Positions 14,984 to 26,358 of a stretch of DNA of 64,000 nt are shown piece by piece (position 1 is the stretch's first letter; every line of letters begins with the position of its first letter). Both the position numbers and the translations under genes were made by a program. Origin of the DNA: Cyanophyceae cyanobacterium. GTDB taxonomy: Bacteria; Cyanobacteriota; Cyanobacteriia; Cyanobacteriales; JBHJGN01. The notes under the pieces were generated by a model. That model made no database searches and had not been told where the DNA came from. It saw nothing but the letters and a program-made list of their open reading frames with translations. Location: the NCBI GenBank assembly GCA_050331735.1, contig JBHJGN010000077.1:5062-69061 (forward strand), read 5' to 3'.

Positions 14984-17014
14984 TCATCTAAAGGTTGTCG
15001 GAACAGAAACAGTAGACACCCGATTTTGAGCAAAATGTTCTAATAACATGCGGTGATAAAATACATAGCTACCACCCACTTTTTTCATCAACAGTCGTTC
15101 TGAGGCGTAGTCAAGAAAGTGAGCTAGATTCCTAGGAATTAAACCCTTAGCCCATAATATAAGTCGTAGGTTGACGTGTTGAATGCAGGCCATTCCGCCT
15201 CCAAAAAGTAGCCCTAAAATCAGTCCCCAACTGATTACAGAAGTGATTGACTTTAATCCTTTAGGAAATAAACTAATCGGAAAAGGAAACAAAATGATTG
15301 GGATCAAAATTAGCCAACTAGCTAATGCGACGATCGCGGCATTCGTGACCGATTTCCGAATACCTTGGTTAGGGATAGTTTTTGTCTCTATTTCTGAGCC
15401 TCTTAGCCCACGGATTAATCCGATAATTAGTCCTAAAATTACTCCTAAAAATAGTCCAAATACTATTATTGTTAAGCCATTGCTTGGCTCTTTCCAAGTC
15501 AGGTAACACCACACTACACTAATCGGGGACAAAATTCGACTCCAGCTTAGTCCATCCCTTAAACCATTAAGCAGATCTTTTCGCGTTTTTTTCCAAGGCC
15601 ACGTCAAAGTTTCAAAGGTTTTTATTTCTGCTTTATCGCTTCCAAACCATAACAAAACAAGTCCCCATGTTACTCCGTTGATCGCTAATACTTTAAAAAG
15701 GTTAATTTTTTCGTTATGCAAGTCTAAAACATAGCCTAGTAACAAGATTAATAGAACAACCAGCATCCCCATCAGTATACTTCCCACTCGATAAAGTCTT
15801 CTTTGGAGATTAGGCTCCAACCAATAGGGCTGCATTCTCTCAATTAAAAAGACAGATTGAGCTCCCTGAGACATCCGCTGTGCCAGCCAAGTTAGCCAGT
15901 ATATTGACCTATCTTTCTGGTATTGCTGAACTCCTTTACGCTTGAACATCCGATCAATATAAGTATCGAACAGGTGATGACGGCGTTCTTCACTTGAGCA
16001 AAACTGCTGTAATAGATCTTCTACTGACCAATCTTGATAAGCAACACTCATAATACTGAGAATTAGAGGAGTTTGGGCAAAACGTTCTAATTCTCGATCT
16101 TGCTGTAATAGCGTTCTTAAGCCAGCGAGGGAATCACCTGCTTCTGCTAAAAAACGATCTACTTGTTTTTTTGAAAGAGGTTTAATACAGATAGCACTGC
16201 TAAGTTGCAAACGCGCTGTCAGTGCCTCATAATCCTCGACTCGGCTACAAATCACCATCTCAGTAATATTATGAGTTGTGATAAATTGATTTAAAGCTCT
16301 AACGCAAGCGTTGCGCTTTCCAGCTTGTACTTCATCTAATCCATCAAGAAATAGAATTAGCTGTTCCTGTTCAATCCAAGGTTCGCTTAGCGTTTTGGGA
16401 ACTTGATATTTATCTTTTAGTTCTTCAATTAGCCATTTTTCTATGGGTTGCTGCTTGTATTCCCAAGAAGATAAGTTAAACACTACGGGGATAGGCTTCG
16501 TTAAATCTTTTTCGGTTTGAGCGATCGCTTTTTTGGCTAGCTGTAATAAAGCAATCGTTTTTCCTGAACCAGGCTCTCCTAAAATTAATAGGGTTTTACC
16601 TTGTCCGGTTTGATTCAAAATATCTGTTGATTTAAGTTGGTCAAAAGACTTATCCAAGTCTATTGCTATATCTTCAACGCCTGTAAAAGGTCTAATTACC
16701 GCACTTGAATTTTTTTCCCAGTCGAGGTTAATGACATTATTTCTATAGAGAGAAGAGTTGAGAAAACCCTCGATCCAAGACTCTTTAACTTTGCGCAATA
16801 AGGTGATTCGCTGTCTATATTCGTGTTGAGTTAATACTTGGCGCACTACTGGAGTTTGACCTAACCAGTCCAGATCATTCGTGACGCGATCGCGATATTG
16901 CTCGCGACTGAGAATGGTAATGTTGTGATTGTGAACAGTGTTATTGTCACCAACCGCAAAGCCTTTTGCTGAAGCTTCAAACCTTTGATTGTATTTAGCA
17001 CTACGTTCAACCAT
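14984..17014 (-). CDS. NACHT-family STAND NTPase (NLR-like) with N-terminal short signalling motif and about 6 transmembrane helices
   Basis: Start moved to ATG 17014 (MVERSAKYN) with GGAG 8 nt upstream. Walker A LILGEPGSGKT, Walker B LILFLDGLDE. Hydrophobic helices span ORF residues ~417-620. C-terminal YVFYHRMLLEHFAQ resembles the NACHT-associated YxFxHxxxQEYFAA helix. No TPR/WD40/LRR repeats. Confidence 0.8.
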   Translation of the reverse strand: MVERSAKYNQRFEASAKGFAVGDNNTVHNHNITILSREQYRDRVTNDLDWLGQTPVVRQVLTQHEYRQRITLLRKVKESWIEGFLNSSLYRNNVINLDWEKNSSAVIRPFTGVEDIAIDLDKSFDQLKSTDILNQTGQGKTLLILGEPGSGKTIALLQLAKKAIAQTEKDLTKPIPVVFNLSSWEYKQQPIEKWLIEELKDKYQVPKTLSEPWIEQEQLILFLDGLDEVQAGKRNACVRALNQFITTHNITEMVICSRVEDYEALTARLQLSSAICIKPLSKKQVDRFLAEAGDSLAGLRTLLQQDRELERFAQTPLILSIMSVAYQDWSVEDLLQQFCSSEERRHHLFDTYIDRMFKRKGVQQYQKDRSIYWLTWLAQRMSQGAQSVFLIERMQPYWLEPNLQRRLYRVGSILMGMLVVLLILLLGYVLDLHNEKINLFKVLAINGVTWGLVLLWFGSDKAEIKTFETLTWPWKKTRKDLLNGLRDGLSWSRILSPISVVWCYLTWKEPSNGLTIIVFGLFLGVILGLIIGLIRGLRGSEIETKTIPNQGIRKSVTNAAIVALASWLILIPIILFPFPISLFPKGLKSITSVISWGLILGLLFGGGMACIQHVNLRLILWAKGLIPRNLAHFLDYASERLLMKKVGGSYVFYHRMLLEHFAQNRVSTVSVPTTFR

Positions 17015-17030
17015 TTTAAGTCTCCAGCAG

Positions 17031-17402
17031 CTAAGAGCCAAATGTATTTGTTTGAGTGTTGCGATCGCCGAATTGACCCCCTTTAACTTCCCCTTGAAAC
17101 AGCATGTTATATTTACCTGCTGCTGTTTCTTTAGGATCTAACTGTTTTAGTATTTCCTGAGCTTTTTCAACAATTTTCTCGTCTCGATCGGCACCAACCT
17201 CAGTTAATTTCTTTTTGAGTGGAGCTTCATAGGTGTCAGGGTCTTTTTCGTATTCTTCTAAAACCATTTCTGCTTTTGGTTCGCCATCAAATTTATGCTT
17301 AATTAAAGTTTTTAAGCCTTGATAAGCATCTGGAGCAACATCTCTAGCCGCTTTTACTGCTCCAGCAACCAGTGCAGCAAGAATTAAAGAAATTGGTTCC
17401 AT
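17031..17402 (-). CDS. Small Bell-like protein with N-terminal hydrophobic helix and C-terminal amyloid-signalling-type motif
   Basis: 123 aa with a GAGGA RBS. The N-terminus MEPISLILAALVAGAVKAARDVAPDAYQGLKTL is followed by a charged helical middle. The last ~26 aa (GKYNMLFQGEVKGGQFGDRNTQTNTF) match the N-terminus of the next gene. Confidence 0.6.
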   Translation of the reverse strand: MEPISLILAALVAGAVKAARDVAPDAYQGLKTLIKHKFDGEPKAEMVLEEYEKDPDTYEAPLKKKLTEVGADRDEKIVEKAQEILKQLDPKETAAGKYNMLFQGEVKGGQFGDRNTQTNTFGS

Positions 17403-17647: not shown

Positions 17648-20600
17648 TTAAACAAAGATCGATTTATAAATGCGGTTCTGAACTTTTAAAGTTCCCTGTT
17701 GCTTAACGACTAGCCCCGATAACAGCAGTTCTCTTTCCTCGGGGCTATTATCTGAAACTATTGCACCTCGGTGTAAAATTTGTCGATAGAGTTCTAGTAG
17801 TCGGACGGACTGTTTGCTCTTGAGCAGGCGATCGCGGATCGTTCTCAAATGCTCGGGTTCATCCTGATATTCCCAATTCTCGACGATCTTGGTTCGCACC
17901 AAGTTTTCGAGCCACTCGGCTTCTTGGTTAGCAGGGATTGAAGAGGAAGCATCGCGGATAAGTTTGCAGAGCTTTTGGGTTAAAAAGGGCTGTCCGTTCG
18001 TCCAGGCAAACACTTCTTTGAGCAGCGTTTGTGGATTATTCACTTTGTCCATTAATCCTTGCAGCAACGGTTGCGCTTCATGCTGTTTAAAGCCCTCTAG
18101 TTGAATCGCCTGACCGATGTTAAAGGGGGTTCTTTGATAGTCGGTTGCTAAATCGCTCGGAGTAGCGACACCAAAAAAAGCAAAGGTTAGGCGTCGATAC
18201 TCTGGATCGATACTGCGCTGATTGTAGCAGGAGCGTATCAGCGCCAAAAAGTCATTAACGGGAAAATTCAGGCTTAAGAGGCTATCAAGTTCATCGATAA
18301 AAATAACTAGATTGGGAAGAGCATTATCTTGGCACTCGACTTCAACTAACAAAATTTCTCGAATAAACTGACTCAATTTTTGTACTGGAGAAAGATCTTC
18401 TTGCTCTCGCCACCAGGTTTTTAAATCGACTGTCCTCAGCAAACCAAAGCCATACCATAGCTCTACGGCTAATCCCTTATACCATTGTTCGGGCGTAACG
18501 CTTTCGCTGCCAATCCGAGTCAGATCGATCGCTCCGCAGCTAAACCCTTCGTGCTGGAGGTGACGCATCATGCGCACCATCAAGCTTGACTTGCCCATCT
18601 GCCGAGGATTGAGAACATGACAAAACTCTCCTCGTTTTAACGCTTTATAAAGACAGCGATCCGCCGAGCGTACCACATAAGTCGGGGCATCCATCGGCAA
18701 ACTTCCCCCCACTTGATAGTCAAACTCAGAGGATTGTTCGGCACTTCTGAGCAGTTCATTTTCAAACATGAGTTCTGCTTGAGTCGCTTGGAGAATTTCC
18801 AAGGTTTGCGATAGCTCTTGAGTGCGTTCTGAAACTCGTTGTTCGAGGGTGCGATTGTAGCCTGCTAGCTGTTTGTAGAGACGGGCATTTTCGATAGAGA
18901 TAGCGGCTTGAGCGGAAAGAATCTTTAAAACTTCTACGCGATCGCTAGTAAAGGCACCGCTGGTTAAATTATTTTCTAAATAGAGAATCCCGATCAGTTG
19001 ATCTTGATGAAGCAAAGGAGTACAAAGAATCGATTTGGGGTGAGTCGCCACTATGTAAGGATCGCCGCTAAACTGTTTTGCCTCAGTCGCGTTGTTTAGC
19101 ACAACGTTTTTGTGGGTGCGGGCAACATAGTGAACGATGGCAACGGATAGAATTGGTGCTTGGCAATCGTCTACAGAGTCAATGGCAATTGATTGCAGAA
19201 CAGCCACCTCATCAGCCTCTACTGCTCCTCCCGCTTCAATTGTTAAGTGATCCTCGTTTGCTAGAATCAGAAAGCTTTTTTGAGCGCCAGCATTCTCAAT
19301 GACAGTTTTCATCAAATTTTTGAGCAATTGGCTCAGCGCGATCTCCCGCGAAATTGTCTGCGAAGCTTTGATAACGCTGGCTACATCTAATCCTGCCTGG
19401 GTCAAGGTTGAAGATAAGCGGTTGGTCGATTCTGAGGCTAAATGTGGGTATCGTTGCTCTAGGTGCTTCACCTTGGCGTGTGCGCCCCATCTTTGGTAGG
19501 CATAATGAGCATCCTGTATGTAGTGGCGAGCAACATGATTCTCCTGAGCTAGGTAAAATTGACCAGCCAGTTCGCAGGCAAGAGCTTCTTCATTAAGATA
19601 GTTGTTTTCCTGAGCCAGCATAATAGCCTGGTCATACTGCTCTCGGGCTTCTTGAACTTGCCCCAACACTCGGCAACGTTCTGCCTCGACTAAATGAAGC
19701 TTGTGTAAAAAATTCATGGGAGCACTTCGCGCCCACGTTCGTATCTGCTTTTGATTACTGGCTACTTTTGCTAAAATTTGTTTCTGTTCAACGGCTAAAG
19801 ACTGAGGGTAGACCGCCAGTCGTGCTAAAGAGTCATAAAAGTAGAAGAGGGGACAAAGCAGCGTTCCTGTAGAGGTGTCTACATAGGGTTCAGCACAAAC
19901 AGCATTTTCAAACGCTTCCTGATACTGATTAAACAGGTAGCAGAGAATTAGTTTGTTGAGATACAGATAGTAAATAGTTGAGCGTTGATTTCTTTGCACA
20001 TAGAGAGGAAGTTCCTGTTCTTCGTTATAAACCTCCCCGACTAGACGGTAGGGTTCGTCTTCTCCAATCAGGTTCAGAACAATTTGATGGATCAGAGTGT
20101 CGTTTCTGAGCTGATTAATGGTACTGCTATAGGTAGTGATTTCCTGCTCTAATTCAGGTAGGGGACGAGCAGCGCTGAAATAGGAAAGATAACAATAGAT
20201 TTGGATAGATAGAGCGGCATGTTCAAGATCTCCCGTGGCTAAACCACTGTGATAGGCAGCTAATAAGGCGCTAAACGTCTGGCTAATGTGGAATTTCCCA
20301 GGAATTGTAAAATAGGTGGTCACAAAGAGGGTCATCGCTTTGAGTTCTTTCGCGTTTAACCGCTCTAACAGACGCAAAGCAAGCTGACCGAATTGGTAGC
20401 CAAGCTCAAAGTTTGCGGCTCTACAGAGAATCAATCCGTAATTCGCATAGGCATGGGTATGAGCAACAGCGTTGCCATAGTGAAGAGCCAAATTAATTTG
20501 GGCAAAGATAATGAGCGGCAACAGGTGAGGACGGGCTATATAGGCGGCAGGGCAGAGAGTGAGTAGGATACGGGTAGCGGCAATTTTGGTCGGATCGCTC

Positions 20601-23269
20601 ATCAAAGGCGCATCCAGTAAGTCTTGAGGCTGTTTTTGTGCCAAGGATTGTTGCAGCGTCTCGAACCCCAAGCTCACGTCAGATTCAGAAGGCTGCGTCG
20701 GTAAATTCACGCCGAGGATTTTCAGCACCGAGATGCCAAGCTGGAGGGCTTCGGTAAATTTTTTCTGGGCTTTGAGCGCTTGGATTTCGATTTCGTGAAC
20801 TTTCACCTGCTCTAAGTCAGATTGAGCCTGTTGCCGTACCGCCTGAACTAACTGCTCCATCCGCCTAAAATCGTGGTTGAGATAGGCTGCCTCTGCGGCG
20901 GCGGTGTGTAGAGCTAGCGATAGGTCGTATTGCTGCCAGTTTGCTTCAAGTAGTTCTAAGCCGACGGTAAAGTAGGTGAAGGCAGATTGATGGGCGGCTG
21001 ATGCTTTCGCGATCGCTCCTGCCTGGAGATTTAAGCGGGCGAGTTGCTCTCGCTCTGGACGGTGGGAGAGCAGTGACCGTCCCTGGTTGAGCTGATTAAC
21101 AATCGTAAAGGGGTCCGATTCTAGGGGGGTGTGTTTGAGCAACCGTTGACCAATCTGCCAATGCACAGCCTGGGTTTCTGCCTGGGGAATGAGGCCATAG
21201 ACCACCTGCTGGATGCGATCGTGGGCAAACTTGTATCCGGCTGATTTTGATAAACCGTTTACCTCCAGCGACCTTAGCGTGTAGCTGTCGTTCAGGGGTA
21301 GAATATATCCCTCGGCGATCGCTGCCTCTAAATCTACTGCTACTTCCCGAGCCGTTTTTTCAGAGATAATCGCTAATCGGTCTAAAGTAAATCGGTTCCC
21401 CAGGCAGGCGGCTAATTTCAACGCGGCCTGAGTTGGTGGCGTTAGCTGTTTGACCTTCTCCGCCATCAATTGGGCGACATTATCCGCAATCGGCTGGGTT
21501 TGAATCTGCTTCAAATCCCACCGCCATTGCCCTCGTTCGTCATCAAATTCGATCAGCGATCGCTCGTGTAGAGATTTCAAAAACTCGCTGACAAAAAAAG
21601 GATTGCCCCCCGTTTTTGCCTGTAACATCGTTGCCAGCGGACTGGCGGTGGTGGAGTCAACCCGAAAAGTATCGCTGAGCAGTTGGCGAGTATGGGTTTG
21701 GGTTAGGGGCAACAGCGAAATTTGATTAACGGTGATAGAAGACTCGATTTCCCTTAAAGTGAGCAGGAGCGAACTCTCGCTTACTTCGTTGTCTCGATAG
21801 GCTCCAATCAGCAGCAAGTATTGGCTATTTCCAGCCGTGAATAACCGTTGAATAATTTCAAGCGTGGCTCGATCTGCCCACTGCAAATCGTCTAAGAAGA
21901 TGACGAGGGGATGTTCCGGTTGAGTAAAAACTTTAACAAAATCTTGCCATACCCGATGAAAACGATTTTGCGCCTCTGTCGGCGCAAGGTTTGGGAGGGC
22001 TGCTTGGGAACCGATAATCAATTCTAAGTCGGGCAGAACATCGAGCATCACCTGTCCATTTGCCCCCAAAGCCACCAACAGTTTTTCCCGCCATTCTGCA
22101 ATCTTGGGTTTACTTTCAGTCAGTAGCTGTTGGATTAATGACTGAAACGCTTGAATTAGGGGAGCATAGGGAATGTTGCGCTGTAGCCGCTCAGATTTCC
22201 CAGAGATAAAGTAGCCTCGCTGACGGGTCAGGGGCTGATACACCTCCTGCACCAGAGCGGATTTACCCACCCCTGAATGTCCGCAAATCACCATCATTTC
22301 GCTAGCGCCTTGGCTCACGCGATCGCAGGCAGCTAATAAGCGAGCCAACTCTGCTTCTCTTCCGTAGAGCTTTGGGGAAATTTGAAACCGATCGGAAATA
22401 TCCACTTGACCTAATGGAAAGGAAGCAATTTGCCCTTGGGTTTGCCACTGATGCCAACAGTGTTCCAAATCTGCCTTGAGTCCAAAAGCCGATTGATAGC
22501 GATCTTCGGCGTTTTTGGCCATCAGCTTGAGCACAATGTCTGAAATTGCCGGGGGAAGGTTGGCATTATGTTGATGGGGAGGAAGCGGAGATTTGGCAAT
22601 ATGGCCGTGAATTAATTCCAGAACATCCTCTGTAGGAAAGGGCAACCGACCAGTGAGCAGTTCATAAAAGGTTACCCCGAGAGAGTAAAAATCCGTTCGC
22701 TCATCGATTGCCCGATTCATCCGCCCCGTCTGCTCTGGGGAAATATACGTTAATGTTCCCCTTAATACCTTTGGATGACGAGTTGAGTTTTTCGGGGTCA
22801 GTAGGAGCGAGCTACCGAAGTCGATCAGTTTGACCTGCTCAGTCGCGGGACTCCAAACAATATTGGACGGGTTGATATCGTTGTGGACAACGTGCTGTTG
22901 ATGCACTTGGGCAAGAATACGAGCAAGTTGAATGGCAAGCGGGAGAAACTCCGTGACAGAGAGAGGGCGCTCTTCAATCACCCGATCGAGAGCTTGCCCC
23001 CCAAAATCCTCTAAAACCAAGAGCCAGCGGTCCTGCTCATTCTCTAAACCATAGACTTGTACTACCCCTGGCAAGTTAAGTTGATTGAGTTTTTTGGTGG
23101 TTTCATACTCCTGTCTAAACCAAGCAATTTCCTCGGGTGTCGGGTAAGGCTGTTTGAGAAATTTGAGAATGACGGGTTGACAATCTGCTAATCGTCGTCC
23201 GCGATAGACTTGCGAGCTAGCGCTTTCGTGAAGCTGTTCGATAATTTGGTAGTCTAAAACACAAATCAC
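17648..23269 (-). CDS. Multidomain signalling NTPase: Ser/Thr protein kinase + AAA_16-type STAND ATPase + TPR-like helical array + GAF + coiled coil + C-terminal AAA-like (AAA_35-type) NTPase
   Basis: GTG start with GGAG 6 nt upstream. Kinase motifs [18 protein letters not shown] (aa ~6-270). P-loop GHSGVGKS with [12 protein letters not shown]. Long helical repeat region. GAF ([19 protein letters not shown]...ILYLENN...ISIENARLY). Coiled coil. Last 359 aa: [34 protein letters not shown]. Confidence 0.8.
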
Positions 23270-23287: not shown

Positions 23288-24817
23288 CTAGAACCAGGTC
23301 AGATGTCTAGGCTGCCGTTGTTGCCGTTCAGCAGATCGCTTTTGCAGTGCTTCTACCAAGGCTTTCTCACTTGTGTCTTCTGGGGAGGGACCGTACAAAA
23401 TCCCGACAACCTTTTTCATCTTCTCCACGTCGTAGTGATGTTCGCCATGTTCGTGTTCGTGACTAGGACCAGCCCAAGGGGAATCGGTGTGAACCCACTG
23501 CCCTTTCTCGAACCAATCTACGCCTTGAATAACCGTCTTCACCACCTCACCGGGATGAGCCGCTTCATGGGCGCTGAACCAGTCATTGATGCGGTCATCC
23601 ACCCAGCCGTGCAGCCGCCAGAACACCGGGTTGACGTGAGAGGAATAGAACTCGCCCAAAAAATCGTATTCGGGGCGATCCCAAAAGTCACGGATGTCGT
23701 TGTCTTCCCGTCCAGATGGCAGTACGCCGAGCGCGGGATGATAGGGGGCTGATGTCCAACGCATGTGCATATCGTTATGAACCGAGTACTCAAGCAGTGC
23801 ACCAAGTTCTCCGAGCGAGAGGGTACTGAGGTACTGTTTGTTCTTAAACTCCCGGTCCCACCACGCCATCCGCGACCAGTAGTGTCCGTCTGTCTTTAAT
23901 AGAGCAATGCGGCGGTTGGTGATTTCGTCGGTCGGATCGATCCAGGCTGGAGGAATAGCAAATCCGTCTGGGTTGCCGGGGGTGGGGAGAACTGGCGGGT
24001 CTTCCTCGTAGTCTGGTTCGGCTCCCACAGAACCGGGACGGGGAATCGTCGGCCATCCGGCGATCGGCTCCTGTCCAGCTTCCTTGATCTTGCGATTCAC
24101 TTCTTGAATCATCTGTCGGTGCATGAAGAGAAAGTCCTCACCGGAGCCATTGCGAATTAGGGGAGCACCTGTCGCATCGACTGACGGACGTTCTTCTTCG
24201 CCGCCTGGTTGCCATCCAAGTTCTCGAATTGCCTGTTTTTTCTCTTCGTTGATCATCGGATTAAGCCACAATCCGCGCACACTGTGCCAAACGGTATGGT
24301 GGAGCCGATGGTGTTTCGATGCCAGCATCTTGAGAACTTCCTGTGGAAGCGGAATGACCGTTCTTGGCTCAGGGAAATCCCGTTGAACAGCAACGAAAGA
24401 GGCTACTACGCCAGCCGGACTATCCTCGCCATGCTCCACAGTTCGGATTACCGTTCCTACCAACGCAGGTCGCTGATTCTTTCCGTTCGGCCACTCAGGG
24501 ACAAAATAGGCGACGTAATCGTACACCCACCCCTGGGCAAATGTTCCCAACACGCCAGTCCCTTGAAATCTTAGGGAAAATGGGTTGCCTGTCTGGAGCG
24601 AGCCTTGGAGTGAGAGTCGGGCGTCATTCATCTTCGGCGGGTCACTCCTAAAGGCAAGCTGTCCGCGAATCGTCCCAGGCTCGGCAGCCGCCTCAAATAC
24701 CATCTCACCTTCCCCAAAGATGAGGTTTTTGAGCTTGTCACAATCATCGCTGACTGGCTCAGTAATGTTGTTATAGCTGCGGTAGGTCCAAGCCCCGCTC
24801 AGAAATTCGTTGGTCAT
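23288..24817 (-). CDS. Divergent tyrosinase-like (type-3 copper-like) protein with N-terminal beta-rich domain
   Basis: FLFMHRQMIQEV resembles FLPWHRxxLxxFE. HNDMHMRW resembles HNxVHxWxGG. NPVFWRLHGWVDDRI resembles DPxFWLHHAxVDRLW. There is also a His cluster, HHRLHHTVWH. The canonical CuA His at -9 is missing and the CuB spacing is longer than usual. No signal peptide. Confidence 0.4.
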   Translation of the reverse strand: MTNEFLSGAWTYRSYNNITEPVSDDCDKLKNLIFGEGEMVFEAAAEPGTIRGQLAFRSDPPKMNDARLSLQGSLQTGNPFSLRFQGTGVLGTFAQGWVYDYVAYFVPEWPNGKNQRPALVGTVIRTVEHGEDSPAGVVASFVAVQRDFPEPRTVIPLPQEVLKMLASKHHRLHHTVWHSVRGLWLNPMINEEKKQAIRELGWQPGGEEERPSVDATGAPLIRNGSGEDFLFMHRQMIQEVNRKIKEAGQEPIAGWPTIPRPGSVGAEPDYEEDPPVLPTPGNPDGFAIPPAWIDPTDEITNRRIALLKTDGHYWSRMAWWDREFKNKQYLSTLSLGELGALLEYSVHNDMHMRWTSAPYHPALGVLPSGREDNDIRDFWDRPEYDFLGEFYSSHVNPVFWRLHGWVDDRINDWFSAHEAAHPGEVVKTVIQGVDWFEKGQWVHTDSPWAGPSHEHEHGEHHYDVEKMKKVVGILYGPSPEDTSEKALVEALQKRSAERQQRQPRHLTWF

Positions 24818-24978: not shown

Positions 24979-26358
24979 CTAGCTCTCAAAAACCGATGTG
25001 ATGGACAGATGTTGTCCCTTGGTAAAATACTGCCGATACAGTTCGCACCCGGCGATCGCGCGATTGCCGCAAAGTTTAATTAACCCCATACTGCATAGCT
25101 TGTGGGTTTGAATCGGATCTAAGGAAACAGGTTCAGCGGCATTTAGAACCTGATGAAGAGCCTGCATCAACTCAGGCTGTTGTTCTAGGGTGGCCCAATG
25201 ACGCTGCAGGTGATGAGCATATATTCCTGTCGCCGTGAACGCCGTTTTTAGCAGTTGCGATAGCGTTATTTCTCCCCGATTCAGATGATAGAGTGCCAGA
25301 TTCACCAGTGCAGGATGACCCCCGACTAGAGACATCAGTTGCTGGGCTTCTTTGTCATCCGTCCAGTCCAGTCCGTAACGTTGGGCTAGGAGCTGTACTT
25401 CCTCTGGAGTAAAATCCTCTAACTGAATGGGTAGCCCGACATTGAATGGGGATTGGTTACAGTCGAGAGGAACGTAAATTTCTGTTGAGTGAACCACAAT
25501 CAGACGCAGCTTTCGCCAAATCGGTAATCTTTTTGTTTCTTCGTACCACGACCGCAACAGCGGTAAAAAATCCTGCGCCACCTGCGGATGCTCGAAAATC
25601 TGGTTCACTTCATCTAGCGCCAAGACGAGGGGAGCGTCGATTGACTCTAATAAATAGTCTCGAAAGTAAAGGGTGCAGCTCAGATTACTGCCCAAATCTT
25701 TGTCCCAATACTCGTCTAGCATCGGTTTAAGCTCAAGCTGGCGAGAGATACTCGTACACAGCCAGCGCAAAAATTGATTCAAATTACCCAAAATTGATTG
25801 CTCGACTTGCTCTAGGTTCAGGCTGACGGTATGGTATCCCAGGTGAGAGGCGTAGTTAAGGCTCCTCAGCAGCAGTGAGGTTTTCCCCATTTCTCTCGGA
25901 GCCTTAATCCGAATTAACGCTCCTGATTTTCTCACTTCTCGCTCGACTTGTTCCTTAACAGAAGAGCGTTCGAGGTAAAAGGGAGAGTCAAGCGGAACTG
26001 AGCCGCTGGGGTAGCAAGGTGACGGATCCTGGTTGACATGGGGGAACGCTTCCGCCAGAGGTGACCTTAAAGGTCTTGTTTGAGGGTCGGGTCTGGTGGT
26101 GACGTAAGACTCCAGTAATCCCCGACAGTTCTTTTTGGTCACGCGCTGACCGACGACCTTAGAAAGTCGCTGATACAGCTCTGGGGCAGCAACGTTGGTA
26201 AAGTAGCCAGGACTATAGCCTGCCTCGATTGCAATCTGGTTGTAGGTTTTATACTGCCAAATACCCTGTAGGATCAGCATTTCTGCGGGATTGAGGGGTC
26301 GATTTTGGCTCTCAATGAGCTGGCGGTCAACAATTTTACAGAGATTATCTAAATTCAT
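24979..26358 (-). CDS. AAA-like (AAA_35-type) NTPase with N-terminal HTH-like module of the type labelled vWA-MoxR-associated N-terminal domain
   Basis: The N-terminus LNPAEMLILQGIWQYKTYNQIAIEAGYSPGYFTNVAAPELYQRLSKVVGQRVTKKNCRGLLE fits a cyanobacterial N-terminal module I recall. Then YPSGSVPLDSPFYLER, Walker A REMGKTSLL and Walker B LVLALDEVN. This part is paralogous to the C-terminal 359 aa of the 1873-aa protein. Confidence 0.7.
   Translation of the reverse strand: MNLDNLCKIVDRQLIESQNRPLNPAEMLILQGIWQYKTYNQIAIEAGYSPGYFTNVAAPELYQRLSKVVGQRVTKKNCRGLLESYVTTRPDPQTRPLRSPLAEAFPHVNQDPSPCYPSGSVPLDSPFYLERSSVKEQVEREVRKSGALIRIKAPREMGKTSLLLRSLNYASHLGYHTVSLNLEQVEQSILGNLNQFLRWLCTSISRQLELKPMLDEYWDKDLGSNLSCTLYFRDYLLESIDAPLVLALDEVNQIFEHPQVAQDFLPLLRSWYEETKRLPIWRKLRLIVVHSTEIYVPLDCNQSPFNVGLPIQLEDFTPEEVQLLAQRYGLDWTDDKEAQQLMSLVGGHPALVNLALYHLNRGEITLSQLLKTAFTATGIYAHHLQRHWATLEQQPELMQALHQVLNAAEPVSLDPIQTHKLCSMGLIKLCGNRAIAGCELYRQYFTKGQHLSITSVFES

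Follow-up and report, generated by a model that had tools for sequence, protein, structure and literature searches.

Multidomain proteins that join a Ser/Thr kinase to a STAND NTPase rank with the largest signalling proteins that filamentous cyanobacteria have, and also with the least understood. In the described HstK family, an N-terminal Ser/Thr kinase (Pkinase) is followed by an AAA_16 NTPase, a long helical region, a GAF domain and a signalling helix (S-helix), and the chain ends in the histidine kinase (HK) domains HisKA and HATPase_c. A swap of this output has a precedent in Arthrospira, where an adenylate cyclase stands in place of the HK (PMC2853384). S-helices, recognised by their ERT signature, are known to link sensors to HKs, cyclases, PP2C and NtrC-like AAA+ proteins (PMC1592074). 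Here, we analysed a stretch of 64,000 nucleotides from a cyanobacterial genome (contig JBHJGN010000077.1; hereafter the window), in which a minus-strand open reading frame (ORF) at 17648..23269 encodes a protein of 1873 residues. This protein shares with the HstK family the N-terminal Pkinase, AAA_16, the long helical region, GAF and the S-helix, at 46–49% identity over ~1500 residues. It differs from it at the C-terminus: HisKA and HATPase_c, which are present in four loci of our sample (L017, L028, L041 and L042), are missing, and the S-helix leads into an AAA_35 NTPase.

Two AAA_35 subfamilies are distinguished below under names defined here, the S-type being fused to sensors and the H-type bearing a helix-turn-helix (HTH) domain. 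We consider it probable, on balance, that the 1873-residue protein is an HstK-like scaffold short-circuited by its S-helix onto an S-type AAA_35 output, which would act with an H-type partner encoded at 24979..26358. One whole branch of these scaffolds appears to end in a conserved NTPase cassette of predicted ORC/Cdc6-like fold rather than in an HK; response regulators that receive their signal from the HK branch end in this cassette too, and it seems to have a dedicated, genetically linked HTH-bearing partner. In the searched literature we found no functional study of AAA_35 (PF14516) or of the full architecture. For AAA_35, a domain family whose members run into the thousands and for which that literature describes no function, the outcome is a wiring diagram that can be tested; it is also a clear example of the exchange of output cassettes that S-helices allow.

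Architecture and distribution of the 1873-residue protein

The ORF is uninterrupted, starts with GTG and carries GGAGAG 6–7 nt 5' of this start; its database self match (P0121) is labelled merely 'AAA family ATPase'. Pfam searches and the comparison of 57 full-length orthologues resolve the chain into Ser/Thr kinase, AAA_16 STAND NTPase, helical region, GAF, S-helix and S-type AAA_35, all on the minus strand, which is the domain order that a preliminary description of this DNA had read from its translation. The Pkinase domain (PF00069, residues 7–259, nt 22493..23251, E 3.5e-35) has K36, E54, H129, N136 and the DFG at 150–152 invariant among the orthologues, D131 being kept in at least 90% of them; with HND in the window protein and HKD in the consensus, it belongs to the non-RD class. 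The STAND-type P-loop NTPase that comes next (AAA_16, PF13191, residues 300–488, nt 21806..22372, E 1.1e-45) shows the expected GxxGxGKS and DD motifs followed by a long helical region: its Walker A is GHSGVGKS (330–337), the second Walker segment has DD at 460–461, and G330, G333, G335, K336, D460 and D461 are invariant. The intervening region of ~820 residues up to GAF (nt 19337..21805) is conserved in the orthologues and aligns also with the HisKA-terminated kinases of the split loci described below. The preliminary description had seen here a TPR-like array within a familiar kinase, AAA_16, GAF and helix scaffold; the scaffold stands, and the array found no confirmation, no Pfam TPR model matching this stretch.

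Next in the chain is the GAF domain (residues 1312–1459, nt 18893..19336; PF01590 E 1.3e-13, GAF_2 E 3.9e-12). Behind it, residues 1466–1507 (nt 18749..18874) have the properties of an S-helix, namely a helix of ~40 residues, also recovered by AlphaFold2 (AF2), that joins two signalling domains and carries a central ERT signature (RVSERTQEL); within it, position 1482, T1483, E1485 and L1486 are invariant. The S-type AAA_35 module (PF14516, residues 1522–1872, nt 17654..18706, E 4.3e-33) matches with 114.9 bits against a cut-off of 27 and covers profile positions 4–329 of 331. Its Walker A is NPRQMGKSS (1554–1562, nt 18584–18610) and its Walker B DE lies at 1659–1660 (nt 18290–18295); RQMGKSS (1556–1562) and DE are invariant. 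The module had been placed at nt 17651–18727, close to this envelope, and the Pfam match over nearly the full profile bears out the view of a complete AAA_35 NTPase where relatives have HisKA/HATPase. Likewise, the invariant Walker motifs agree with the proposal of two intact P-loop modules, a kinase and a GAF domain in one chain. Since the catalytic residues of all three modules are conserved in the 57 orthologues, the kinase and both NTPases are probably active, as judged from their sequences.

Scoring of the C-terminal region as HisKA/HATPase would have spoken against this architecture. At E<0.01, Pfam returned neither domain anywhere in the 1873 residues, and because both are absent no His-Asp phosphotransfer step would be possible inside the protein. 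Pfam gave no Sigma54_activat match either, and the matches of NCBIfam models to the protein were domain-level and all sub-threshold. Among them, NifA covers the GAF region only and RtcR only residues 302–355 around the AAA_16 Walker A, both far below their cut-offs, while the kinase/cyclase fusion model TIGR03903 of TOMM systems reaches 160.3 bits against a cut-off of 705.75, in the AAA_16 region only.

The architecture is genuine, common, conserved and uncharacterised. The first of these qualities had to be weighed against an artefact, either a chimeric assembly or a recent local duplicate of the stand-alone AAA_35 gene at 24979..26358 fused to a kinase. Such an origin would fit the GC content, which falls along the gene from ~0.50–0.53 in the 5' kinase/STAND part (20.5–23 kb) to 0.42–0.44 at AAA_35 (17.5–18.5 kb). 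However, the residues of the GAF/S-helix/AAA_35 junction are invariant, the 57 orthologues are colinear from end to end, and an identical protein occurs in two independent sources, on a 72-kb contig of an NCBI metagenome-assembled genome (MAG) and in a Logan assembly, where the genes come in the same order. Moreover, the C-terminal module is 70–83% identical to the AAA_35 of sensor proteins in other genomes and only 28% identical, over 223 residues, to the stand-alone protein. The paralogy of the two in the broad sense of a shared Pfam family is thus correct, a local duplication and fusion is not, and we rejected the artefact on the grounds of the 28% identity, the conserved junction and the independent identical protein, leaving it a negligible probability. 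From their sequences, S-type and H-type AAA_35 are old, separate subfamilies. As an observation apart, the low GC of the AAA_35 end runs on into a low-GC region with a NACHT gene.

The rarity that the preliminary description implied did not withstand a wider search, as all 120 best full-length relatives combine Pkinase, AAA_16, GAF and AAA_35, with 43–68% identity and lengths of 1785–2118 residues. The same architecture was found in ~30 GTDB genomes among 80 fetched loci. Relatives fall into two length classes, one of ~1900 residues built as the window protein and one of ~2050–2080 residues with an extra PAS domain between GAF and AAA_35. They come from Nostoc, Moorena, Calothrix, Symploca, Pleurocapsa, Microcoleus, Oscillatoria, Chamaesiphon, Hyella, Roseofilum, Scytonema, Tolypothrix and Halotia; Microcystis, Halothece and Spirulina joined this list through the genome scan. 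A kinase-type gene also occurs in a bin labelled non-cyanobacterial (L009, Actinomycetota MAG), a related AAA_16-GAF-AAA_35 gene with no kinase domain detected in an Acidobacteriota MAG (L035), and other S-type proteins in Candidatus Gracilibacteria (P0070) and Sericytochromatia (L072); these members may be explained by wrong binning of cyanobacterial contigs or by rare horizontal transfer. In another locus (L021, 9008–20434), two tandem kinase-AAA_16-GAF-AAA_35 genes of 1897 residues each lie behind one H-type gene and one RPE65-like gene.

AAA_35 as the probable output of split and fused systems

The origin of the fused protein is best read from four split loci (L017, L028, L041 and L042), in which an H-type gene is followed by variable genes, a kinase of ~1820 residues (Pkinase-AAA_16-GAF-HisKA-HATPase), a REC protein of ~122 residues and a regulator of ~730 residues (REC-PAS-S-helix-AAA_35). 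In BLAST alignments, residues 1–1506 of the window protein match the split-locus kinases at 46–49% identity, through GAF and the S-helix, and residues 1468–1872 match the split-locus regulators at 70–73% from the S-helix onward. The sole overlap of the two alignments is the S-helix, NRTLE..V..RTQEL, which is common to both parents. In the same vein, a member of the ~2090-residue class (L018) aligns with the kinase and then with the regulator from PAS onward. These alignments indicate that the window protein would correspond to the split system minus HisKA, HATPase, REC and PAS, through an S-helix join, or else evolution ran the other way and gave rise to the split system. Because it matches the kinase up to the S-helix and the regulator from there on, the fused form looks like a short-circuited phosphorelay with AAA_35 as output. 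By the same comparison, the AAA_35 cassette would be the downstream output of the scaffold in split and fused forms alike, a point that the preliminary description had missed, together with the apparent status of the neighbouring gene as a conserved partner.

The combination of S-helix and AAA_35 behaves, judging by its sequence contexts, like an output cassette that can be reused. Residues 1466–1873 as a query retrieved 4223 proteins, of which the top 120 share 52–83% identity and carry the cassette behind GAF, PAS, REC, cNMP-binding, HAMP, DUF3365 or dCache domains. The unit of S-helix and AAA_35 is 59–83% identical behind GAF, PAS, REC, cNMP, HAMP, dCache-HK-REC and Amt-HK-REC, and in the fetched loci it terminates hybrid kinases of the types dCache-HAMP-HisKA-HATPase-REC-PAS and ammonium transporter-HisKA-HATPase-REC. 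An exhaustive HMMER search gave 9320 representative clusters (50% identity) at E<=1e-3 and 4272 at E<=1e-30, with at least 598 S-type stretches in GTDB genomes. The S-type module lies either C-terminally after sensors or N-terminally before arrays of transmembrane (TM) segments and WD40 repeats or before CHASE2 with or without a cyclase. In a group of four proteins (P0362, P0363, P0366 and P0361), some begin with a single full S-type AAA_35, behind which a ~130-residue sub-segment is repeated three to five times, and one has three full modules in succession.

Structure prediction gives this cassette a defined shape. The AF2 model of residues 1466–1873, computed with 50 homologues (pLDDT 83, pTM 0.75), consists of a single helix of 41 residues (module residues 2–42), a low-confidence linker that includes a conserved 15-residue motif, an AAA+ alpha/beta core, a helical lid and a C-terminal winged helix. 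Foldseek against the PDB placed archaeal Walker ATPases at the top (2qen, 1.7e-09, TMt 0.56; 2fna, 5.9e-09), then archaeal Orc/Cdc6 proteins (1w5t, 3.2e-07; 2qby, a DNA-bound heterodimer; 2v1u), and further down eukaryotic ORC/Cdc6 subunits, Apaf-1, CED-4 and the plant proteins Roq1 and RPP1 of the nucleotide-binding leucine-rich repeat receptor (NLR) class. A PDB profile search with the module returned RecA matches local to the Walker A and no sequence relative, and the Pfam ATPase_2, Cdc6 and ORC models did not match residues 1466–1873. The predicted fold, with its core, lid and winged helix, is closest to archaeal ATPase_2 and ORC/Cdc6.

Proposed pairing of S-type and H-type proteins and its possible function

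The H-type protein of the window (24979..26358, minus strand, 459 residues) has an N-terminal HTH, a precomputed match to HTH_VMAP-M9 (PF26355), and a canonical AAA_35 at residues 116–446 (Pfam E 1.6e-151); a search for PDB relatives of it found none. Its gene lies 1.7 kb upstream of the kinase gene on the same strand. In Halotia and Moorena, H orthologues that are 72–76% identical adjoin the kinase orthologues, the kinase itself being 52–60% identical. Pairing was counted over 80 genome loci and 3 context loci. The density of H genes per 100 kb is 25.5 at up to 1 kb from an S gene, 1.3–2.0 at 1–7.5 kb and 0 at 7.5–10 kb, which makes them ~13–20 times denser inside 1 kb. An H gene lies within 10 kb of the kinase-type gene in 20 of 28 cases, within 1 kb in 10 of these 28, and within 500 bp of 28 of the 65 other S genes. 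Same-strand S/H pairs less than 500 bp apart number 30, mostly in the order H then S, and 4 of them abut or overlap. Besides, single-chain fusions of S and H form ~35 or more clusters at 90% identity, in both orders and with inserts, e.g. a 734-residue S-H protein in L026 and the variants S-cyclase-H, caspase-H-S and S-S. The two partners also vary together: over 58 neighbouring pairs, S-S and H-H identities correlate with r = 0.81, a value reached by none of 2000 Mantel permutations, and the S clade linked by S-helices, with the window protein in it, pairs with one H clade while the N-terminal S clade pairs with another. This linkage density, the fusions and the co-variation suggest that S and H are cognate, co-inherited partners, and that 24979..26358 is no by-product of duplication but the gene of a conserved partner.

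Starting from the S-helix-coupled scaffold with its H-type partner, we can outline how a signal would travel. The ligand state of GAF, and possibly that of the kinase and AAA_16, would pass via a dimeric S-helix to the nucleotide switch of AAA_35. This switch would then assemble with the cognate H-type protein of 24979..26358 into a nucleotide-dependent hetero-oligomer, and the S-H assembly would control DNA binding and transcription. Plausible targets would be the variable enzyme genes between H and kinase, here a PvdP-like tyrosinase gene. In more general terms, and with about as much to be said for it as against it, S and H may make up a previously undescribed two-partner AAA+ switch, widespread in cyanobacteria with clusters in the thousands, in which S takes nearly any input and H carries the output. 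Inputs would range from GAF, PAS, the REC of His-Asp relays and HAMP to Cache and Amt HKs, Ser/Thr kinase-STAND scaffolds and WD40; outputs would be HTH or else a protease, a cyclase or a kinase. In the window protein, nature would then have short-circuited a phosphorelay onto this switch by joining one S-helix to another.

Several points weigh against the transcriptional outline. The HTH match at the H N-terminus was not reproduced by our local copy of Pfam, and VMAP-M regions have been proposed as sensors and not as DNA binders (PMC7159879). In the window the H gene lies 1.7 kb off with another gene in between, and for 8 of the 28 kinase-type genes the flanking sequence available contains no H gene. 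Gene-pair duplication and a common species phylogeny would by themselves produce part of the mirror-tree signal. The AF2 model of a natural S-H fusion has both modules folded (pLDDT 83) with a pTM of 0.50 and no confident interface. Finally, WD40, CHAT, caspase and cyclase domains occur in S- and H-type proteins as well, which fits a conflict system too.

The missing H genes and the missing interface would both suit a self-contained switch, in which AAA_35 homo-oligomerises on nucleotide and unites kinases for trans-phosphorylation or scaffolds substrates, the H gene being unrelated. AAA+ and STAND modules commonly homo-oligomerise, and S-S doubles and chains of up to six AAA_35-like stretches exist. 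Such a switch leaves the ~13–20-fold enrichment of H genes near S genes, the abundance of S-H fusions and the co-variation of both partners unaccounted for, as well as the identity of kinase-adjacent H orthologues, which exceeds that of the kinase itself; we hold it to be improbable.

The main rival, which the WD40, CHAT and caspase fusions elsewhere in the family support, takes S and H as an NLR-like pair for conflict or defence, a STAND-like immune sensor and its executor, whose output would be the activation of an effector (protease, cyclase or kinase) or cell suicide and not transcription; among its members, the kinase-GAF protein would be one that is regulated. The likeness of the AAA_35 fold to Apaf-1, CED-4, Roq1 and RPP1 agrees with it, as do S-type modules ahead of TM and WD40 arrays, as many as four in tandem after a single H gene (L053, L056), and H-type modules fused to CHAT (L041), caspase (P0317) or Pkinase (L064). 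The H N-terminal domain is homologous to the VMAP middle region of vWA-MoxR conflict systems, a NACHT gene lies downstream in the window, and the family is concentrated in multicellular cyanobacteria. The paper on vWA-MoxR systems (PMC7159879) mentions neither AAA_35 nor ORC. On the other side, the PADLOC matches listed for the 1873-residue protein (PD-T4-6, mad6 and MkoA) all fall in residues 5–321, the kinase domain, and the stand-alone AAA_35 protein has none. Furthermore, the S cassette of the window clade follows housekeeping sensors (GAF, PAS, REC, HAMP, Amt-HK) via the S-helix, the kinase-linked H proteins have only an HTH-like N-terminus and no effector, and the surroundings in the window are ordinary chromosomal metabolism. 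A defence role is unlikely on this evidence, if somewhat less so than the self-contained switch, and the short-circuited scaffold with its H-type partner is the reading that we retain.

Neighbouring genes and likeness to known systems

On the same minus strand, a gene for 509 residues (23288..24817) separates the H gene from the kinase gene and encodes a clear homologue of PvdP, the tyrosinase of pyoverdine maturation (PDB 6eys/6rrp, E 2.5e-72); its stop codon lies 18 nt before the kinase start. The ORF has no Pfam match and no obvious signal peptide. Since the gene was found in no other fetched locus, it would be variable cargo and not a conserved part of the system, going by its distribution. 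Of 31 kinase loci, 23 have an H-type AAA_35 gene close to the kinase, and other recurrent neighbours in these 31 are a ~770-residue YcaO protein (13), Amidohydro_2 (12), a ~360-residue protein (7), TP_methylase with TPR (4) and RPE65-like oxygenases (4), besides amine oxidases. It is a speculation compatible with these data that oxidative or tailoring cargo genes between H and kinase are regulatory targets. Upstream clusters of YcaO (~770 residues), Amidohydro_2 (~365 residues) and the ~360-residue protein were seen in 13 of the 31 loci, e.g. at L002 1957–7884 and L005 187–7892 and in L024, L026 and L031; the ~360-residue protein ends in PYPYIPL[ST]C[ST], with small ORFs and an amine oxidase close by, and the cluster may be a pathway like those of ribosomally synthesised and post-translationally modified peptides. 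None of these three genes was found by tblastn in the window.

Downstream of the kinase gene, at 14984–17402 on the minus strand, an ORF of 123 residues overlaps by 11 nt the start of a 685-residue NACHT protein, whose C-terminal half resembles several TM helices. This region has a GC content of 0.37–0.41, compared with 0.48–0.53 upstream, and PADLOC gave only weak PDC-S60 and PDC-M54A matches there; in L023, too, the kinase orthologue has a NACHT gene downstream of it, which is 44% identical. The remaining genes of the window belong to ordinary metabolism, and a promoter and terminator scan of 16.9–27.3 kb gave counts no different from the shuffled level. In three further loci (L056 4646–20593, L053 9680–18290 and L081), one H-type gene is followed by two to four tandem S-AAA_35/TM/WD40 proteins of ~1160–1240 residues, an array that resembles one helper with several sensors.

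To conclude, besides the HstK family, three described systems come close to the one proposed here. Regulators that combine a sensor, an S-helix and an NtrC-like module are alike in that an ERT-type S-helix connects the sensor with an AAA+ NTPase, which gives the output through its oligomeric state (PMC1592074); AAA_35 differs in that it is not a sigma-54 activator, has the predicted ATPase_2/ORC-Cdc6 fold with a winged helix and apparently needs a second AAA_35 partner. With the archaeal ATPase_2 and ORC-Cdc6 proteins (2qen, 2fna, 1w5t and 2qby), the module shares the order of core, lid and winged helix, and the heterodimers of Orc1/Cdc6 paralogues on DNA, as given in the title of entry 2qby, parallel the proposed S-H pairing. 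However, this is a likeness of fold only (TM 0.36–0.56, 11–16% identity), and the context of AAA_35 is signalling and not replication. Finally, paired sensor and helper NLRs also consist of two diverged, linked NTPase paralogues, one with sensors and the other with output or effector domains. They differ from S and H in belonging to another NTPase family, and the S-type stands behind the sensors of bacterial one- and two-component systems.

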